Shown here one piece after another: positions 4,862 to 51,359 of a DNA stretch of 64,000 nucleotides; positions within the stretch are counted from its first letter, which is position 1; the number at the start of each line of letters is the position of its first letter. The stretch is from Octopus sinensis (lineage: Eukaryota). Made by a program: the position numbers and the translations under genes. Location of the stretch: positions 96,100,001 to 96,164,000 of the forward strand of contig NC_043004.1 of assembly GCF_006345805.1 (NCBI RefSeq), given 5' to 3'. The notes under the pieces are model-generated. The model saw only the letters and a list, made by a program, of their open reading frames with translations. It searched no databases and was not told the origin of the DNA.

Positions 4862-5166
4862 TCTTTATATATAAAAGTGAAGTTGTGTGAGAGTCTGTCT
4901 ACTCCGATTTACATTCTTAACTACTCCCACATTTTGCGGTGCAGTTTAACCAAAAGCGGGTATCTTATAGTCGTGATTCATATCGAGCCCTTCTGGGTAT
5001 TAGCACGTGTCTACGATGAGTCTACGATTTAAAAAAAATATTACCATAATTTTTCCGCATTTTTAATGCATTTTTTGCTCGGTTTATATAAGGGAAGTAA
5101 CTCTCTAAAAATACTTATATAGTTATTTCCCTAACAAACCCGAGCAACGCCGGGCGATACTGCTAG
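4862..5166 (+). mobile_element. Non-autonomous Helitron
   Basis: 5' TC, subterminal hairpin cccgagcaacgccggg, 3' CTAG, inserted between A and T; two further copies in the window. Confidence 0.9.
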
Positions 5167-8027: not shown

Positions 8028-8369
8028 TTAAATTTGTAATTTTAAAATATTGTACCCCCAGGGTTGTAATCTGTTAGCTGAATGGGTGGGAATTCCTTTC
8101 TTCGAGCCAAAAATTGATAGTAACTGTCGAGGGTTCGTCTGAACCCAAAAACTTCTACAGTGGAGAAATCTGTGAAATTTCTTCACGGTAAAAATAATCA
8201 CTAGAGTTTCTTTCTGTATCTGACTGTAGCTTTTTCTGCTGCAATCAGGGCACGTGAGGCGTGAGCCACCGCCATTATATTTGTGTAACAAAACTGCGCC
8301 TACGACGTATTCAGAAGCGTCAGAAGCTATAAGAATCTCAACTGCAGGATCGAAATGACTTATCCACAA
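8028..8369 (-). pseudogene. Gypsy pol RNase H remnant
   Basis: IASDASEYVVGAVLLH...YSQIQKETLVIIFTVKKFHRFL...SANRLQPW. Confidence 0.9.
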
Positions 8370-8938
8370 ATCCGAATTTAATACTTTTTCAATTTCCTCA
8401 AAGGCCTTTTGACAGTTATTTGACCAATTCTAATATGGCGTTTTCTTTAGCAAATTATTAAGTGGCGCTCTCAATTCATACATGTTTGGTATGTAATTAT
8501 GATAATAGTTCGTTAGGCCAAGAAAAGCTTGTTATGTCGCTATGTTAGTTGGTGGGGAGGCATATTTTTAATTGCGTCTGCCCTCGATGGGTCAGGTCGT
8601 CTTCCATTTTTATCTATAATTTGTCCGAAATATTTAATATTAGGCAAAAAGAATTCACATTTCTCCTTACTGAATGTGAACCCATAATCTATCATCTTTT
8701 TAAAAAAACACACTCCACATGTTCGATATGCTGTTCACGATTCACTTTTAATTAATACATCATCGAGGTATGGAATTGAAAATTGTCTCCGCCAACATTG
8801 CATCCATTACCTGTTGAAATATTGCAGGTATGACCTTCAGACCAAACGGCAATGCGACCTTCAGACCAAATAGCAATCTATTATATTCGTTTAGTTATTT
8901 GTGCGTATTCAGTTAGAAGCTTCGAGTATTCCTCGACT

Positions 8939-9429
8939 GTAATGACATGCATAAGATCTGGTCATCAAATCTTAGTAGAGACTTCAAACTTGAAATCTTC
9001 AAAGCCACAGTCGAACCAATTCTACTATATGGCTCAAAAACCTGGACGTTATCAAAGAAGCTTGAGAGGCGGTTGGATGGAACCTACACTGGCCTCCTTA
9101 TGAGAGTTCAAAATCTCTCGTGGAAGCGCCATCCAACCAAAAGGCAAATATATGGGAAATTGCCACCTGTGTCATCTCTTGTGAAAGGTAGGAGAGTCCA
9201 GTTTGCTGGACATTGTTGTAGAGCTGAAAAAGAGGTAATTTCTACTCTTCTCCTCTGGAAGCCATCTACTCGCAATACCAGAAGGCGCACACTCTCCTAC
9301 CCTGATGTAATCTCCTGGGATACAGGCATCCAGCAACAGGACCTCCGTAATGCCATGATGGACCGTGAAGTCTGGCGTAGCATGGTAAATTCCATATTTC
9401 TCGACTAAGGTCGAACAATGATGATGATG
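8939..9429 (+). mobile_element. RTE-clade LINE 3' fragment nested in Gypsy RT
   Basis: ORF VEPILLYGSKTWTL..RRLDG..FAGHC..DREVWR; (GAT)n tail; 11-bp TSD attcctcgact at 8928-8938 and 9430-9440. Confidence 0.9.
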
Positions 9430-11652: not shown

Positions 11653-13417
11653 TATGTTTGACTTTTGCTTTATATTTGTACAAGTTGGCTCCAAGTCTCA
11701 CCCAGAGACCTCAAGAGACAACAGGGTTGGAAGTTCATGTTGTTGTTATGCCTAGTGTGCCATATATTTGGGGGGTGGGGATGTTGTACTAATGAATGTC
11801 TAAAAAAAAGGTTTTTTTTTTTTTTTTAACCGAAAATTATGTTTGTTTTAAACCTTGAGATTACATAGAGAGTATTTTGCGTAGGATATGAGCAGTTCCC
11901 ATGAGCACTATCTTTTGAACTTCTGCCATTTTGGGGTTTCCTGGTATCTGAGTTAGGTAGCTATCAGCCCCTTTTGCTATCATTCCCAGGGCACCTATGA
12001 CAACAGGTATTGTTTTAGTCTTCAGCTTCCACATTTTGCTGATTTCTATTTCAAGATCTTTATATTTGCTCAGTTTTTGGTAGGTCTTGACAGATACGTT
12101 TATATCGATTGGGACAGTCATATCAATGAGGAGGCATGTTCATTGTTTGAAGTCTTTCAATATGATGTCTGGCCTATTTGCATCTATCTTCCTGTCAGTT
12201 TGAATGGTGAAGTTCCAGAGGAGTGAGATGTGGTCATTTTCAAGCACTGGGGGTGGTTTGTGTTCCCACCAGTTTTTTTCATGGGGCAAGTCCAGGTTTT
12301 TACAGATTACCCAGTGAATATATTGTGCAGCTCTATCGTGCCTGTTGAGATACTCTGTAGGCGCTAGAAGACTGCACTTGGAGACCACATGGTCAATGGT
12401 TTCATTTTGTTGCTTGCATACACGACACGTTGGACTGCTTCTGATCTTTAATATGTTGGCCTGGTAGTTTCTTGTTGGTAGGCATTGATCTTGAGCTGCT
12501 ATGATAAACCCCTCTGTTTCAGATTTTAAGACAGAGGCCATTAGCCATTGATGGGTCAGGGCTTTGTCGATATCTGCATTATTCGCTCTCTTGGGTATTT
12601 GCCATAGAGAGGTTTTTCTTGCCATTTATTATTCAGAATATCTAAGGCCGCAGTTTTGGCACGGGTTTTCATGCGCCTAGCTTTTTCTGTGCTTGTTTCT
12701 TGTATATCTATCTCTAATTCCGAAATTGGTTGTATTCGGAATTCACTTAGATATTCCTTTGCCTGTTTTGTGACTAAGTATGATGCTTTCTTGTTTTCAT
12801 GTTTTGAGACAAGTTTTAGCATCCAGTCCTCAGAGTTTTTCAGGTAGGTGTCTAGGCCAATTGTAGCAATCTTCATTGTTATTGCCAGTTGCAAAAGACC
12901 ACGGCCTCCCTCTTTTCTTGGCAGATAGAGTCGTTCTGTATCTGCCTTAGGGTGGTGCATTCTATGCATTGTCAACAGTTTCCTTATTTTTCTGTCGAGC
13001 TGACATATTTCAGTAATTGACCAGTTAACAATATTGAAACTGTAAGTCACGACTGGTATAGCTAATGCATTGATTGCTTCAATCCTGTTTCTTGCATTCA
13101 GCTCTGTCTTGAGTATTGCTCTCACTCTTCGATAGCATTCTCTCCTGATCCTTTCCTTCATCTCTGAATGCCTTATTCCGTTCCCTTCAATTACCCCTAG
13201 GTACTTGTAGCTCTCCGCTGGGTCTAGTTCTTTTATGACATTCTGTTGGTCAAGGTTAACGTTAGATGTTTCTGTCATTTTCCCTTTGATAAAGGTAGCC
13301 TTTGCACATTTATCGAGGCCGAATTGCATTCTGATGTCGTCACTGAATTGTTTGACTATCGCTAGTAAGCCCTTGAGTTGTTGATCATTTTTCGCAAAAA
13401 GCTTTAAATCATCCATT
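11652..13417 (-). mobile_element. R4/Dong-like non-LTR retrotransposon, 5'-truncated (RT C-terminal half, CCHC zinc knuckle, RLE endonuclease)
   Basis: MDDLKLF..FGLDKC..YKYLG; CRVC..ETIDHVVSKC; RHD; RPDII; K..KYKDL; PVVIGALG; frameshift near 12600 and stop at 12140; (TAA)n on both flanks. Confidence 0.92.
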
Positions 13418-13635
13418 ATTATTATTATTATTATGTTTATTATTATTATTATTGTCATTATTATTATCGTCGTCGTCACCGTTGTTGTTGTTATCATCAT
13501 CATTATTATTATTTTCTTGCTGCTGTTTTTGCAACTGTATTATAGAAGCTAATGGGTTTTCCATCATTAACAACCTTGTACCACAAAAATTTGCTAACTG
13601 ACCTGCATGAACTTCGAAAATTCGTCGCCAATTAT

Positions 13636-16645: not shown

Positions 16646-17262
16646 TGACGGGGTGCCGAAAAGTTTGTGGCTTTCGGTTAAAACAAAATGCAGGAGGATC
16701 AGTTAATTACGATTTTATTCAATACTAGCAGTATCGCCCGGCGTTGCTCGGGTTTGTAAGGGAAATAACTATATAAGCATTTTTAGAGATATAAAGTATA
16801 ATAGCCATCTCAATATGGCTAACCACAAATGGGGGGGGGTTACTGTAGCTTTTTACGTTCTGAGATATAATAATAAATTTTTAGAGATTTACTTCCCTTA
16901 TATATGCTAAAAATGCATTAAATATCGGAAAAAAATTATGGTAATTTTTTTTTAAATCGTAGACTCATCGTATATATATATACACCCAGAAGGGCTCGAT
17001 ATGAATCACGACTATAAGATACCCGCTTTTGGTTAAACTGCACCGCAAAATGTGGGAGTAGTTAGGAATCTAAATCGTAGGAGACAGACACTCACACAAC
17101 TTCACTTTTATATATAAAGATATTCCCCTCTCAGATTCACACATTTATTGCATTGATCCTTCAGTTCTCCTAACCCCTGTTAAAGAACTTGGAAGGTTGG
17201 GCCTCCAACCAAACCTTTCGTGATAACCTTCAAGCCAGGAAATCTTCTGCACTGTCTTATAC
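16646..17262. mobile_element. Mariner-derived MITE interrupted by a Helitron
   Basis: Colinear with the intact copy at 36259-36474 once 16725-17120 is removed. Confidence 0.85.
16725..17120 (-). mobile_element. Non-autonomous Helitron (long variant)
   Basis: Minus-strand TC...cccgagcaacgccggg-cgatactg-CTAG; A|T insertion site. Confidence 0.9.
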
Positions 17263-26539: not shown

Positions 26540-27400
26540 ATTGCCTTGGACCACACTATTTTCGCATTCTCCAGCTCAGTCATCTAGAAACTCACCGACT
26601 CTAAGCCCTACCTTGAATTCTCCTTGCACTCACCCACTTCAAGTTTTCTGTTTTGTATTCTGAATTCCTTTGTTGCCAGTGCCTCTACAGTTGTACGTAC
26701 AACTTCAAGATGCATGCTCCAAACATGACTCATTCCTACCTTTTACTTGCTTGCCCACCCACTCTTATCGAATGTGCCCTCCCCCATCTGCTGTTTACCA
26801 CCCCACAGCTGTTACACCATGCACATGTAATTTCACTCAACACATTCCCCTTTCCTTGACCTACTACCCCACTCACTTGCCTTTACAGCACATCGTCCTC
26901 CGTCTTTTCCACTACTAACACTCCGACTCTGCCACATCCTGCTTCTTCCCTCTTTCATCAATTACTTTCTTTAAACATTCCTGCTACCATTGCAATATCC
27001 TTGTCCATAGCTCTTCTTTCAGCGCAAGCCATCTTTTTCATGGTTCCCCCTTGATCCTGTCCTTGCAGCTTTTCTTTCTAACACTACCACTCTTATCAGC
27101 CTCAGCCACTGAACTTTCCACATTAAAGATTCCTCTACAAAACTGATTTATGCACTCCAGTGTTCTTCCTGAAATAGCATCTACATCAAACTGTCTGCCA
27201 AATTGCTTATGGAACACCTCAGAAATATCTCGCTTGACAACAGGTCACCTGTCTCTCAACACTTCCACTCCACCAACCGTTTCTTGCAAAATAATCTGGT
27301 TTTCTTTGTAGCTGCAACCAACCTGTCACCATCCCATTGCTCTCTTCATTTCTCCTCCCCCATCTTTCAGTCCAAATTTTCCTCCTCGATATTTAAAGGT
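26540..27400 (+). mobile_element. Highly decayed Penelope-like element (RT C-terminus / GIY-YIG region)
   Basis: EHLRNI..PVSQHFHS and ILVHS motifs; C-rich composition like 30700-31950. Confidence 0.55.
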
Positions 27401-27548
27401 TTTTCTCCCCGTCTGCTTCCTGACTATACACATCTTGCTCTTCTATCAAACTACTCCTATGCACACCACTCACATTCATTCCTTCCCCCACTAATTATGT
27501 CTCCCCACTAATTCTTATACTCATGCATGTGTCCTCAACCCACCAATA

Positions 27549-29732: not shown

Positions 29733-29832
29733 CTCCCTGGACATTTTATCTGCATTATTTTGTATTCATCATCATCATTTAACGTCTGTGTTCCATATTT
29801 TTTCTCACAATGGTTTTGACATAAGCACCACT

Positions 29833-29907
<75 letters not shown>

Positions 29908-30044
29908 AGTGGTGCTTATGTCAAAGGAGGCGAGAGCTGAGTGAGAGAAGTGAGAGTCAAATTATAGAAAATCAGAGAAAGATTAATTACAATACAACAC
30001 TGATATAAAATTTAAAAAAGCATTACATAGTTGAAATTTACAGA

Positions 30045-31950
30045 AAAACAAAAGATGAAGACAGGTGTATAAACAACAAGCAAGTGTATTATATTCACGC
30101 TCGGGAAGGTGAGAAAGTCTTTTACGTTTCGAACCTACACTCTTCAACAGAAAGGAACACGAAGAAATAAACAGAGAGAAAATAAACTTTTGGATTTAGC
30201 GGTCAATCATGGCGACTGGTTGGACAAAGGTAGTTAGACAGGAGAGATAGGAAGAAGGGGAGATATAAAAGTACTGGTAATCCCAAAATGAAGGTGCGTG
30301 TGCGTGTGTGTATGTGAGAATGTGTGTGTGTGCATGTGGATAGGGGCTGGTGACTGACGTGTGCATGTGTGCGTGTGTAAATGTGTGCGTCTGTAATGTG
30401 TAGGTGTGTGGATGATGGTGTGGGTGCTGGGAAGTGGTCAGTGCTAGTGTGTGCGGAGTGGTGTGGGATGGTGTGATATGATGTGGTGGTGTTGGGTGCA
30501 GGTTTAGGTTGAGGATGTGGGGTAGCGGTGAGGTGTGTGGGAGTGGAGTATGGATGGAGGGGTTATCAACGAAAGGAGAAGGTGGGTAGGAGTGAAGAGA
30601 GCAAGTAGGTGTCAGATGAAGAGAGGAGAGGAGGGCGGTCAGATGAAAAGGGGAGGAGAGTTTAGCCCGTGTGTCACAAAGGAGCGAAGAGAAAAAATAA
30701 ATCCTGTTCACGGCGAAGGTGAGAATCCAGATGGCCCCTGTACAAGAATCCGGATGGCCCCTGTGTCTGAACACAGACAGGTGTTGTAATGAATGGCCGA
30801 GAGAGCGGAAATAGCGTGAGACTGGGGTGTCACTACTAACTCTAATGTCTCAGAGGTCCTCCGCGAACTGGTCAGCCAAGCGGCGTTCAGTTTGACCAAC
30901 TTACAAGGAAGGACACAAAGAGTAGGAGATGCAGTAAATGATGTTGATAGCAGTGCAGGTAAAGGAGTCAGTGATATGATAAGGACGATGATGGGTGCCT
31001 GTGAAGATGGTAGTGTTGGAGAGTTAGGTGCAAGTGCGGCAGCATGAGTAGGCGCAGAGGAACGAGCCAGATTGGGAGGTGGGGTTAGGGAAGAAACTTT
31101 GGACCAGGATATCACGTAGGTTGTGGGCTCGTTTTAAGGTGGGAAGGGGTAGGTTGGGAAGATGTGCAAAGTAGAGGGGTCGAACCGGGGTCACCGGAAG
31201 GCTCAGAGAATGGTGCGTTGAGGGGCGGGATGGAGGAGTAGTAGATGAGGGGAATGGGGGGTGGGTAATGGAGAACCAGTTGCGAGGAGAGAGAGCAGTG
31301 GTATGGTCCACTGAACGTGCTCTGGCAAGGGTGGTGTGGATAGTGGTGATGGGATATCCACGAAGAATGAATGAAGGGGCGAGCCACGAGTTGAGACTGA
31401 GTCTCAAAGTCATGGTTGTCACTTCTTCCATCCTGCCCTCGAATTCTCCTGCACCATTTCCAAAACTTCCGTCGCCTTTCTCGACATTTTGGTTAACAAA
31501 CACAGCTCAACTCTCATTACCTCCATCCACTACAAACACATCGAGTTACACTCGTACCTGCACAGATGGAGAACTTGGTGTGAGTAGGGTAGAGGGAGGA
31601 GAAGTTGAGGTATGAGTGTGAGTCGGTGTGAGTTGCGTATGTTGACCGAAATGTCGAGAAAGGTGACTGAAGTTTTGGAAATCCATCGAGGGAAGGATGG
31701 AAGGATTGAATAAAAGAGAGGAAGGAGTCTAGTTGTTCACGGGAGAGCGAAGTTGCATCGATACTGTCATCAACATAACGACCGTATAGTTCGGCAGTGG
31801 GACCAGTGAATCGTGAAAATATTTAGACCTCAATGTAACCAACGAACAGGTTCGCATAGTTGGGGCCCGTTCTCATTATCATAGCTATTCCCGAGACCTG
31901 TTGGTCAAACTACCCCACAAACGAGAAGCAGTAAAGGGAGAGAACAAGTT
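30045..31950 (-). mobile_element. Penelope-like element remnant with terminal pLTR (family P)
   Basis: RT motifs GPNYANLFVGYIE and YGRYVDD (~31760-31870); HNLRDILVQS..C..CCRTC linker; pLTR carrying an HHR-like motif at 30116-30156. Confidence 0.85.
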
Positions 31951-40763: not shown

Positions 40764-42170
40764 AAATATAGGGTAGCGAATTTTTTCCAGAAATTTCACT
40801 ACCAGTGGCCTAGCATGAATAAAAAGGCAATAGAGAATATATTCTCAATATAAAATAGTGTACATTTAAACACAAGAGAAACTGCCTTCAACAAGTAGTT
40901 TTACACGCTAGAAGAAGTAGTCAAAATGACCAAAACCACATTTAAGAGCAATCTTCAAAAGGAATGAAAAATAAAAACTTTTACCTTGTTATTGTGTTCC
41001 GGTCAGACCTTGGTTTCAAAATTTTTTTTAGCAAATAAAATAATTTGCTAGGCGAATTTCTCATCAGTAACTGCGCCATAACACTAACATATAACTAAGA
41101 GACGAATAACATGTGTCTCATCGTTATACATTATAATTTTCCAAATTCACCGCGCGAGCGCAGTTTTAGTCCGCAGTGAATGAATATATGCTGAACCAAT
41201 CTTCTAAAAATTGTTAAAAACATATACGTAAAATATAGGGTAGCGAGTTATTTTTTTTTAGAAACTTCACTACCAGTGGCCTAGCATGTATAAAAAGTCA
41301 ATAGACAACATATTCTTAATATAAAATAGTGAACATTTAAATATTTAATCTTTTCTTTTGAAGATTGCTCTTAAATGTGATTTTGGTCGTTTTGACTACT
41401 TCTAGCATGTAAAACTGCTTGTTGAAGGCAGTTTCTCTTGTGTTTAAATTTACAACTTTTCGAACCCTAAATTTATTATCAAATTTGATAATTGATTTTC
41501 TAGTTGCTAAAACTACATTAATTTCATTGTGGATGAGGCCAGATTTATTATGCACGAACCATAGGGTTTTATTAAGTTTGATATGATTAATAGAGGAATA
41601 AAAACTACAAATATCAAACTGGATAAATTTAGTGCTTAGTTTATTATCAATAGAGTTGAACCAGTCTTTAACCGTGAATGAATTAGACCATAAATTAAGT
41701 TTTTTTTTAAAGTTAAGGACGGAATGTACTTATCAATAATATTTTTACTAAGTACACCAATATCAAAGCTAGAAGGACTGATAAGACGGAGAGCTGGGTT
41801 ACTGAAGAAGTTAGGTTTGTGGTCTTGCTGTTAATTTCCTTGGTGATATTATGTAGATATCTCAGATGTTTATTCCTTAAGGAGAAACGATGGAATTTAA
41901 CATTCTTAACAATAGACTAGAGGTGAGCTTCAAACTGTTTTAATCTTGGGTTAGGAGGAGGATTGTTTTTAGATTTGAACAATTTACTGAATTCAGAAAT
42001 TTGGTCATTGGAAGGAGGTTCGATATTCTTATTATCTAAGAAGAAAGCTTGCCATCTGATACGATTAATAAAAGAGTTGGTCTCATTACTGAGTTGTTTA
42101 AGGAATACCTTTCTTGGGGAAATAAGTATATCCTTAAGAGAGGCGTTTATATTAGAGGTTTCCATTTGCA
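40760..42170 (-). mobile_element. Penelope-like element (second family) with tandem and inverted pLTR pieces
   Basis: SLKDI..FINRIRWQAFF..FKSKNNPP..LKQFE; DHKPNF..RLISPS; RT motif A FIQFDICSFYSSI; direct repeat 40762-40870/41229-41341; inverted repeat 40866-40961/41355-41448. Confidence 0.85.
41002..41071 (-). ncRNA. Type I hammerhead ribozyme motif within a PLE pLTR
   Basis: GTTA CTGATGA GAAATT cgcc TAGCAAAT tatttt ATTTGCTA aaaaa AATTTT GAAAC CAAG GTC TGAC. Confidence 0.85.
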
Positions 42171-42890
42171 GTAACTAGTTCAGTTTCAGGTTTTGATACT
42201 GAAAATCCTTGTATATATATATATATATATGTTTAATTTACAAGAAAAGATCCGGAGAAATAGTTACCATGGCATTCAAATGTCACATAAGAACTTTAAA
42301 ATATTAGTAACCACACATACATGGATAATAATTCGAAGGAGAAGTGAGACGTATTTTGGAGAACATAAGAGAAATGGAAAATGGAAATAAACACACAATA
42401 TGTTATTTAAATCATTTATATCACCGACATATATGTTTCGATGGATATATTAAAATTAATCCTCGAGGAAAAATTATGTGGCAAGAGATTATAAACAACA
42501 GTGTTCATTAATAAGCCACTTTTATATATGTAAGAAATTAAGAAATTATAAAATATAATATATAATATATGATAAAACAAAAGCTGGATAGAGAACGCTA
42601 GTAATTTTAAAATACCGTTAAGAAATTTGACGTCATAGGACGAGAGAAGAGAAGGAATCTATTTCAATTAATGTATGTCCCCTTTGCCTAATAACTAACT
42701 TTCACTTGATTATTTTCATTCCATATATCCCATTCATTGCTTAGTCATTTCTATCCATTTGTTTATTTCTCTATTACTCCTTTAATTTGCTTTCTCACTT
42801 CTTCCTCTTCTTCTTTCGTCCCATGACGTCAAAATTCTTAACGGTATATTAAAGTTACTAGCGTTCTCTATCCACCTTTTGTTTTTCATA

Positions 42891-43283
42891 TCTATATATA
42901 TAAAAGTGAGGTTGTGTGGTGTCTGTCTCCTACGATTTAGATTCCTAACTACTCCTACATTTTGCGGTACAGTTTAACCAAAACCCGGTATCTTATAGTT
43001 GTGATTCATATCGAGCCCTTCTGGGTATTAGCGCGCGTCTACGATGAGTCTACGATTTAAAAAATAATTTACCATAATTTTTTCCCATTTTTAATGCATT
43101 TTTGGCATATATAAGGGAAGTAACTCTCTAAAAATGTATTATTAAATCTCAGAACGTAAAAAGCTACAGTAACACCCCCCTTTGTGGTTAGCCATATTGA
43201 AATGGCTATTATACTTTACATCTCTAAAAATGCTTATATAGTTATTTCCCTTACAAACCCGAGCAACGCCGCGATACTGCTAG
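42891..43283 (+). mobile_element. Non-autonomous Helitron (long variant)
   Basis: TC start, CTAG end, A|T site; matches 4862-5166 and 16725-17120. Confidence 0.9.
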
Positions 43284-43358
43284 TATAATATATTATATAT
43301 TATAATTTCTTGCATCTGTAAAAGTGGCTTATTAATGAAGACTGTTATTTATAATCTC

Positions 43359-43447
43359 CTCCCTGACAAGATTGATACATTATTCCACATTAATTTTTTC
43401 CTCCCGGGTTAATTTTAATGTATCCATCGAAAAATATATATGTCAGC
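43359..43447 (+). ncRNA. Degenerate hammerhead ribozyme motif
   Basis: CTGACAA gattgatacatta ... taatgtatccatc GAAA aatatatat GTC; the partner arm (42423-42460, minus) keeps GAAAC ATATAT GTC. Confidence 0.7.
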
Positions 43448-43847
43448 GATATAAATGATTTAAATAACATCTTGTGCGTGTGTCTCCATTTTCCATTTCT
43501 CCTATGCTGTCCTAATCACGTCTCACTTCTCCTTCAAATTATTACCAATGTATGTGTGCTTACCAATATCGTAATGTGCTTTTGTGACATTTGACTACCC
43601 TGGTGACTATTTCTCTGGATCTTTCCTTATATATATATTTAAGTGTAGGTTTGTTCCTAGTAGTGTGCCAATAAAGCACGTTCACTGTCTATGGCTACAA
43701 GGCGTCATCCACTGTAATTGCATAATTGTCACTGGATCTATCTCAAGAATTCCTCAGTGTACGATGAGTGTAAAATAAATGATGGAGATAGAAAATGCAA
43801 TATACAGGAAAGTTTATGGCTCACAATGATCGTTTCAACACACCTTT

Positions 43848-43920: not shown

Positions 43921-44134
43921 TCCAAAATGTGACCGCGTGTGTACCGTTGGCTATTTTTTCCCTCCATCTTCCCTTCTTTGGATCTTTCCTTTTCCTATGT
44001 TTATGATGAAGAGCTCCGCTCGAAACGTTAAACCCTCTTTCTTTCCTCCTTTCCTGAGCGTCCAATAATACTATACTTGTTCCACGTCCTCGCGCTGTTG
44101 TGTTTTCTCTTTTTCTTTTCATGTTTGGATTAAC

Positions 44135-50433: not shown

Positions 50434-50934
50434 GGTCATTTTCTGCAGCAACACCATCATGGTCATTACTCCAGCGTGCAGTTTAGCACACCATTTATTC
50501 ACATCTCCCCCTCCCTCTTCTGCTTTTTTCTTTTCTCTCTTTTCTGTTTTTATCGCCCTCCTTTTTCGGTTGCTTTGTATTTGAATGTTATGATTTAAAA
50601 AGTGGTCTGTTACATAACTGAATGTAAAAAAAATTTTTTAATTAAACAAAAAAAAAGCAAAAATAATGATTGGTCAATGCATTCTACTTCTCATCTTTAT
50701 CATTACCAGCATTTCAAGATGGCATTAATAAATCTCCGAACGAGATGTAAACAGTAACCGCTCGACAACGTAAAGTGAACTAGCCATCTCAATGTGGCTA
50801 GCCACTGGGGGTGGGTGTTACTGAAGCTTTTAGCCCCAGGAGATCATCATCTCCAGCTGGCTTTAGACAAACTTTCTGTGCCCTTATGATATTCGCAAAG
50901 GGAGGTCATCCCCTCTCGAAAACCTAAGTGATAC

Positions 50935-50977
50935 GCACGGACTATAGTTTCGAGGTTTTTGCCTCTTATCAACGTAC
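50935..50977 (-). ncRNA. Minimal type I hammerhead ribozyme, U3-A8 variant
   Basis: GTACG TTGATAA GAGG caaaaa CCTC GAAAC TATA GTC CGTGC. Confidence 0.85.
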
Positions 50978-51072
50978 GGTAATCACCGGTTTATCAGTGA
51001 CAGTGGTTGCTGGGAAAAACATTACATAAATATTCGCAAACAGGTCTCTCCAATCGAAAACCGGTGATTACT

Positions 51073-51115
51073 GTATGTTGACGAGAGACAAAACCCTCGA
51101 AACTATAGTCCGTGT
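51073..51115 (+). ncRNA. Minimal type I hammerhead ribozyme, U3-G8 variant
   Basis: GTATG TTGACGA GAGa caaaac cCTC GAAAC TATA GTC CGTGT. Confidence 0.75.
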
Positions 51116-51359
51116 GTATCACTTAGGTTTTCAAGAGGGGATGACCTCCCTTTGCAAATATCAGAAGGGCACAGAAAGTGTGTCTAAAATCAGCTGGAGA
51201 TGATGATCTCCTGGGGCTAAAAGCTTCAGTAACACCCACCCCCAGTGGCTAGCCACATTGAGATGGCTAGTACACTTTACATTTCAAGATGGTTTTCATG
51301 TTATAACAGGTATCTATTTTGTGGGGTTTAGTGTTATGACCAAATTAATTCTTTGGCCT

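Follow-up and report, generated by a model that had tools for sequence, protein, structure and literature searches.

How did a fragment that joins the two ends of one mobile element come to lie, at the same site, inside two copies of another? The question is raised by a 64,000-nt stretch of the Octopus sinensis genome (assembly GCF_006345805.1, contig NC_043004.1, positions 96,100,001 to 96,164,000; this whole stretch is the window in what follows, and positions are counted from its first letter). It contains three copies, here Hel1, Hel2 and Hel3, of a Helitron-like repeat of about 300 bp, and a hairpin element at 50723-51280 whose ends recur in a short insertion, or stub, within Hel2 and Hel3 (Table 1).

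Table 1. Positions of the Helitron-like copies, the stub and the long hairpin element in the window
Feature	Position	Strand	Remarks
Hel1, Helitron-like copy 1	4862-5166	+	empty site 5102-5113; 3′ hairpin 12 nt before end
Hel2, Helitron-like copy 2, filled	16725-17120	-	86-bp insert 16875-16790; TSD copies 16887-16876 and 16789-16778
Hel3, non-autonomous Helitron-like copy 3, filled	42891-43283	+	5′ TC, 3′ CTAG, A and T flanks, no TSD
TSD of stub in Hel3, left copy, 12 bp	43125-43136	+	
Stub piece 1: outermost 20 nt of tail, antisense to element RNA	43137-43156	+	17/20 to 50723-50742
Stub piece 2: final ~63 nt of arm up to inner terminus, sense	43157-43220	+	blastn/alignment to 51219-51281
TSD of stub in Hel3, right copy, 12 bp	43221-43232	+	
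Left TSD of long element, 13 bp	50710-50722	+	in the window, word only here and at 51280
One-sided tail, 47 bp, 3′ extension of inverted copy	50723-50769	-	5-bp hairpin near tip
Inverted 5′-truncated arm, likely pLTR	50770-50992	-	93% complementary to right arm
Predicted type I hammerhead motif, core U3-A8, short palindromic stem III	50918-50990	-	Rfam Hammerhead_HH9 and descriptor scan
Extra 5′ stretch of longer direct copy, 65 bp	50993-51057	+	loose ends before 50993 in 3/4 runs
Direct arm without tail, predicted second hammerhead ~51060-51132 (core U3-G8)	51058-51280	+	
Right TSD of long element, 13 bp	51280-51292	+	first base also readable as arm's last base

All three copies of the host repeat start with TC, end with CTAG and lie between an A and a T without a TSD. 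Their flanks are unrelated, similarity ending at TC and at CTAG, and the alignment of the three copies in the window revealed no flank similarity beyond those ends. A subterminal 3′ hairpin (6-bp stem, −4.5 kcal/mol) lies 12 nt from the end of Hel1 and Hel2 and has been lost from Hel3 through a 2-bp deletion. The anatomy is that of canonical non-autonomous Helitrons, for which a 5′ TC, a 3′ CTRR, a single 3′ hairpin and insertion between A and T with no TSD are described (PMC8969392; this and the other papers cited below are drawn on in the parts of their text that were available). The mirror arm of a palindrome surrounding Hel3 has the same site without Hel3 and without any duplication. That palindrome (42236-42657 / 42802-43634), which holds Hel3 in its right arm, has arms of about 420 bp that are 78-89% alike and a 144-bp centre; it adjoins TA runs and may itself be a MITE or foldback element. 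The bodies of Hel2 and Hel3 differ by 4.5% and Hel1 differs from these two by 4.4% and 6.8%, with about 12 substitutions and one 5-bp indel, spread over the body, common to Hel2 and Hel3 against Hel1. This fits two subfamilies, as far as can be judged from three copies without an outgroup, from which the ancestral state is not readable.

An earlier note on this DNA had asked for a three-way alignment of the Helitron copies, and it yields two filled sites and one empty one. As that note had claimed, the filled copies carry a mini-insertion between direct repeats: 84 bp in Hel3 (43137-43220), flanked by exact 12-bp repeats, and 86 bp in Hel2, with repeats that agree at 11 of 12 bases. Hel1, which it had called empty at about 5102, has the repeat motif there once, with 11 of the 12 bases as in Hel3. 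The 11-bp core of this TSD occurs five times in the window, each time at one of the Hel1, Hel2 or Hel3 sites. Over its first 20 nt the insert agrees with 50723-50742 at 17 positions, a level that, apart from the insert copies themselves, no 20-mer elsewhere on the two strands of the window reaches; for the remainder, alignment to 51219-51281 gives 53 matches, 9 mismatches and 2 gaps (about 85%, blastn E 9e-14). On the template the two pieces are non-overlapping, and hence they form no palindrome. The proposal that the insert's ends match 50723 and 51281 is thus borne out on the left and needs adjustment on the right, where the element part runs to 51279/51280 and the last 'CA' belongs to the TSD; the right ends of the stub and of the long element agree within 1-2 nt, not letter for letter. 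Similarly, the match to what had been called a '50.7-kb ribozyme element' is real; the figure is a position, and the stub contains no ribozyme, both hammerheads of the long element being outside the shared part. Folding z-scores of the stub and of the hammerheads are weak (−2.2 to +0.7). At one junction of both insertions the element's 3′ end is followed by CATTT (50710-50714 on the plus strand, 43136-43132 on the minus strand), a possible cut-site preference seen with n=2.

The stub and the long element had been proposed to be two independent insertions, and the evidence agrees: their TSDs are unrelated, and the Hel3 stub differs from the left arm of the long copy by 11 substitutions, of which at least 7 are family variants among the 40 of 67 variant positions listed. 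Because 7 of the 11 are listed family variants, a sister subfamily is the likely source of the stub, rather than the 50723-51280 locus, as judged by comparison of sequences. The further claim that a Helitron amplified the fragment is supported by the unrelated flanks, the A|T targets and the divergence of the insert between Hel2 and Hel3, which at 4.8% is close to the 4.5% of the bodies. Helitrons are described as carrying foreign fragments (PMC4067079); unlike the captured cargo of that account, the cargo here is a nested insertion with its own TSD.

The long element is 558 bp, with inverted arms of 223 bp each and a direct copy that is 65 bp longer. In a 601-bp search, Rfam Hammerhead_HH9 matched 50918-50990 on the minus strand with 38 bits (E 4.6e-8), under the gathering score of 52, and a hammerhead descriptor found three matches in the window, two of them in the arms of the long element, against 0-1 per shuffle in 20 shuffles. 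The predicted cores in the long element are U3-A8 and U3-G8, not C3-G8. In the Rfam search of the whole window, the 150 of 248 matches listed contained only microsatellite-driven miRNA look-alikes, all below the gathering score. At 44003-44036 on the plus strand lies a third hammerhead-like motif, of minimal form, whose core has A at position 3; it is unrelated to the 50723-51280 family, and an end similar to it occurs near 30130 on the minus strand.

Coding potential is slight. An open frame of 24 codons (50993-51064) ends with a stop just before the hammerhead and matched no Pfam family; by eye it resembles what we take to be a GIY-YIG C-terminus. The 39-residue frame 50948-51064, whose first 15 residues are from the inverted arm, gave four phmmer hits (E 3e-5 to 4e-4), all to unrelated repetitive proteins; these were rejected as chance, and the GIY-YIG resemblance is treated as a lead only. 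Pfam and protein searches with the element's short frame found no reverse transcriptase (RT) or GIY-YIG gene tied to the family. A 26-letter family motif had no match in metagenome, viral and prokaryote contigs, and no phage match for the long element was found.

What kind of element is it? Four structural features, namely an inverted truncated arm, a tail at one end, a TSD and a hammerhead in the pLTR, make it likely that the family is a Penelope-like element (PLE). What has been called the 'typical Penelope structure' has in rotifers a TSD of 9-10 bp, a tail of 31 bp and an inverted pLTR lying adjacent (Arkhipova et al. 2013, PMC3846280), and a tail of 30-40 bp at one end is found across PLE clades (Craig et al. 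2021, PMC8557442). The long element shares with the EN+ PLE insertion unit of these accounts the head-to-head inverted 5′-truncated copies, the extension at one end, the TSD of about 10 bp and the hammerhead in the repeat. It differs in having no ORF between the arms and a tail of 47 bp rather than 30-40, and the stub differs in that its pieces are non-overlapping and form no palindrome. The hammerheads also fit. At truncated PLEs, paired opposite-strand hammerheads 100-700 bp apart are known, and a U3-A8 variant has been described (Cervera and De la Pena 2014, PMC4209133); the predicted motifs here resemble those of metazoan PLEs in being type I with a short palindromic helix III, in occurring as an opposite-strand pair and in having U3-A8 in the left arm, and depart from them in the U3-G8 of the right arm and in the lack of a motif in the stub.

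The closest mechanistic counterpart is Poseidon of Anolis carolinensis (PAc), for which both target strands are cut and extended in vitro (Frangieh et al. 2024, PMC11167929). Its RT starts at two internal sites, the tail is the sequence between them, and the genomic ends coincide with them (PMC11167929). The octopus family similarly has a tail downstream of the hammerhead, bounded by two termini that may be fixed, with both strands seemingly primed, and the targets are AT-rich in both systems, each of the two TSDs here containing ATT on one strand. The likeness drawn here is one of anatomy, and in the available text of the PAc study the inverted structure is not derived and non-overlapping stubs are not described. 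The origin of the inverted copy of PLEs is still called unresolved (PMC8557442), and self-priming on an antisense template has been proposed for it (PMC3846280). The geometry of tail, inverted arm and TSD is not new, having been described since at least 2013 and partly explained in vitro in 2024.

Sequencing runs provide a wider view of the family. Contigs of four runs, one from each of organisms A-D, were mapped on 50660-51075 at 80% likeness, and 1985, 2099, 1199 and 806 contigs were placed, so that the family is abundant in all four organisms. The long element is partly present, with at most 0.46 of its words, in 20 of the 24 runs listed; none of the listed runs that contain it is an RNA run, which says nothing on expression. 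In run X2, 271 contigs fit partly, and 25 of these are clipped at 50722; their loose ends are long (median length 81) and AT-rich and agree with one another at 0.49, in contrast to the loose ends made of family sequence at 50851, which agree at 0.85-0.94. Copies that terminate at this point in unrelated DNA would be expected to give such clipping with low-agreement flanks. The pile-up at the tail tip is seen in one of the four runs, X2, among the 24 of 485 loose-end positions listed, and the same 24 include no pile-up at the inner terminus. For that terminus there is a single X8 contig, of 272 nt, which starts to fit at 50770 after 159 other letters (contigs were up to 272 nt among the 32 pieces listed). 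The earlier note had concluded that the ends, and with them the geometry of tail plus inverted arm, are fixed by the mechanism; the 25 contigs uphold this for the tail end, and for the inner end there are the one contig and the copies in the window. The note was probably right to infer a fixed geometry, yet what it describes is an already known PLE signature.

Other features of the contigs bear on how copies are built. In three of the four runs the loose ends before 50993 share sequence, so that the family extends upstream beyond the direct copy. At 10 of the 13 listed sites at which the X1 majority differs, both arms of the long copy have one and the same non-majority letter, and these common letters imply that both arms were copied from one source variant. 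Of the five opposite-strand joints found, two reflect the arm running on into the 65-bp piece, as it naturally does; of the three informative ones, two have an end at 50772 or 50774, which is 3-5 nt beyond the border of tail and arm, each being a single contig, with no orientation given and no shared letters, at the repeat-prone 80% likeness. They may be tail-only first cDNAs, or may be one family copy nested in another, which would look alike. Loose ends before 50828 (21 contigs in X1 and 18 in X2, agreement about 0.5) lie beside the stub's arm break at about 50832 and could mark a third preferred breakpoint or an indel variant; in part they read like a small indel, and they are given no weight here. 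The depth of X1 falls about 30-50-fold from 50856-50869 to 50996-51023, which looks like 5′ truncation and is not counted as evidence, contig depth not being copy number. The unique left flank at 50660-50715 has a flat depth of 30.2 in X2 (organism B) and none in the other three runs, and organism B may hold the locus of the long element or its empty site.

That a PLE is involved and that a Helitron carried its fragment can be held with high confidence. For the stub itself the reading we favour, with a probability of roughly 0.55, is that it arose by a single PLE insertion from two fixed start sites and was afterwards copied passively by its host. The PLE enzyme would have cut the non-autonomous Helitron at an AT-rich place, with a stagger of 12 bp. 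Priming of one target strand at the outer site would have given 20 nt before synthesis stopped, and priming of the other at the inner site about 63 nt; the two cDNAs would then have been joined head to head by repair within the staggered cut. With cDNAs of about 270 and 288 nt, the same reaction would have produced the long copy. To judge from flanks and divergence, the host Helitron would later have moved, at least once, and taken the stub along as neutral cargo. In the long copy the TSD, tail, inverted arms and hammerheads can all be read directly, and in the stub the TSD, the tip of the tail and the end of the arm. The two start sites and the extension on two strands are taken from the in vitro study of another PLE (PMC11167929), and double priming at the octopus locus is what we infer by analogy with it.

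A comparable scheme exists outside PLEs. In the twin priming of LINE-1, reportedly set out by Ostertag and Kazazian in 2001, two nicks are said to prime two cDNAs and so to give an inversion and sequence loss within one TSD. Common to that scheme and the one favoured here are the two primed cDNAs and the inversion with internal loss in one TSD; they differ in that the octopus element would itself set both priming sites, which in twin priming are found by chance annealing, and in that it has no poly(A) tail. A literature search that reached few subscription papers found none with a twin-priming model for PLEs or with short non-overlapping PLE stubs.

The strongest competitor keeps both the PLE origin and the Helitron carriage and takes the stub for the remnant of a longer tail-plus-palindrome insertion after asymmetric internal deletion, with 27 nt of the tail, one whole arm and most of the other lost before the Helitron subfamily spread. 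Its probability is appreciable, if under one half, and it accounts for the data nearly as well as double priming does. Outer ends and a TSD outlast any internal deletion, and long palindromes are prone to deletion, the more so in the single-stranded intermediate of a Helitron. An exact copy of the 8-mer at the stub's junction (43153-43160) lies where tail and arm of the long copy meet (50767-50774), the 8-mer occurring seven times in the window; this opens a route via two 4-bp repeats and fits microhomology-mediated deletion, a process reported in Penelope copies (PMC3846280). Against this, no direct repeat spans the junction for a single step in the sequence of the long copy, so that two steps or another subfamily would be needed, and the window has no longer precursor, though only two filled copies are there. 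Whether the stub was born at its present size, as double priming would have it, we consider an even question. Still more tentatively, and below even odds, it can be put forward as the minimal in vivo footprint of PLE double priming: non-overlapping cDNAs of 20 and 63 nt, of opposite strands and within one TSD, possibly from one RNA.

Two other explanations seem improbable. Rather than a truncated autonomous PLE, the family could be a non-coding parasite in its own right, either retrozyme-like or a DNA element of foldback/MITE type, with the hammerhead as an incidental feature, and such an origin would sit well with the canonical-type hammerhead and its short palindromic stem III, with the type I hammerheads of animal retrozymes (bioRxiv 10.64898/2026.07.22.740005) and with the coding partner not found by the searches. 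But the window has no head-to-tail tandem units of the long element, the copy being an inverted pair, the one-sided tail and the 12-13-bp TSDs fit PLE insertion and not terminal inverted repeats, and the family goes on 5′ of 50993; moreover, the same preprint derives retrozymes from PLE pLTRs, so that a PLE enzyme would still do the mobilizing. More improbable again is that Hel2 and Hel3 share the stub through gene conversion or segmental duplication instead of Helitron transposition, a scenario to which the number of filled copies known (just two, 26 kb apart on opposite strands) lends something, and with which three observations are at odds: the similarity ends at TC and CTAG, the palindrome around Hel3 has the empty site in its other arm, and the substitutions and 5-bp indel that set Hel2 and Hel3 apart from Hel1 extend across the body.

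As it stands, the finding matters little, being a nested insertion of one mobile element in another. The stub does mark a Helitron subfamily and gives an order of events, in which the family was active, the insertion followed and the Helitron then spread, its copies now being about 4.5% apart. If the stub was born at its present size it matters somewhat more, with a bearing on how PLEs make their inverted copy: fixed ends without overlapping sequence cannot come from fold-back self-priming, and the inverted pLTR would then arise from two primings. If so, insertions of tail only plus arm would be a recurring class, to which the joints at 50772/50774 may belong. Counting such stubs in a good assembly would directly test models of PLE inverted-copy formation.

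Elsewhere in the window a region at 30100-31900 on the minus strand has, by eye, what we take to be the decayed remains of a second PLE family, with a YVDD-type RT motif, a cysteine linker, a GIY-YIG-like segment and then a repeat end. Two pieces of it (31027-31506 and 30721-31020) gave no homologue and no Pfam family, and the region has no DNA similarity to the 50723-51280 family. The open frames 41337-41729 (minus strand) and 27173-27511 (plus strand), which by their look resemble fragments of a PLE RT and endonuclease, had no Pfam hit. Pfam fragments are present at 12140-13539 (minus strand), 8917-9408 (plus strand) and 8028-8429 (minus strand), and correspond to a LINE-type RT with zf-RVT, DUF6451 and an LTR-type RNase H. 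The Rfam output also drew attention to a TA microsatellite at 29815-29925, which with a 20-bp inverted repeat on its flanks forms a small palindrome.
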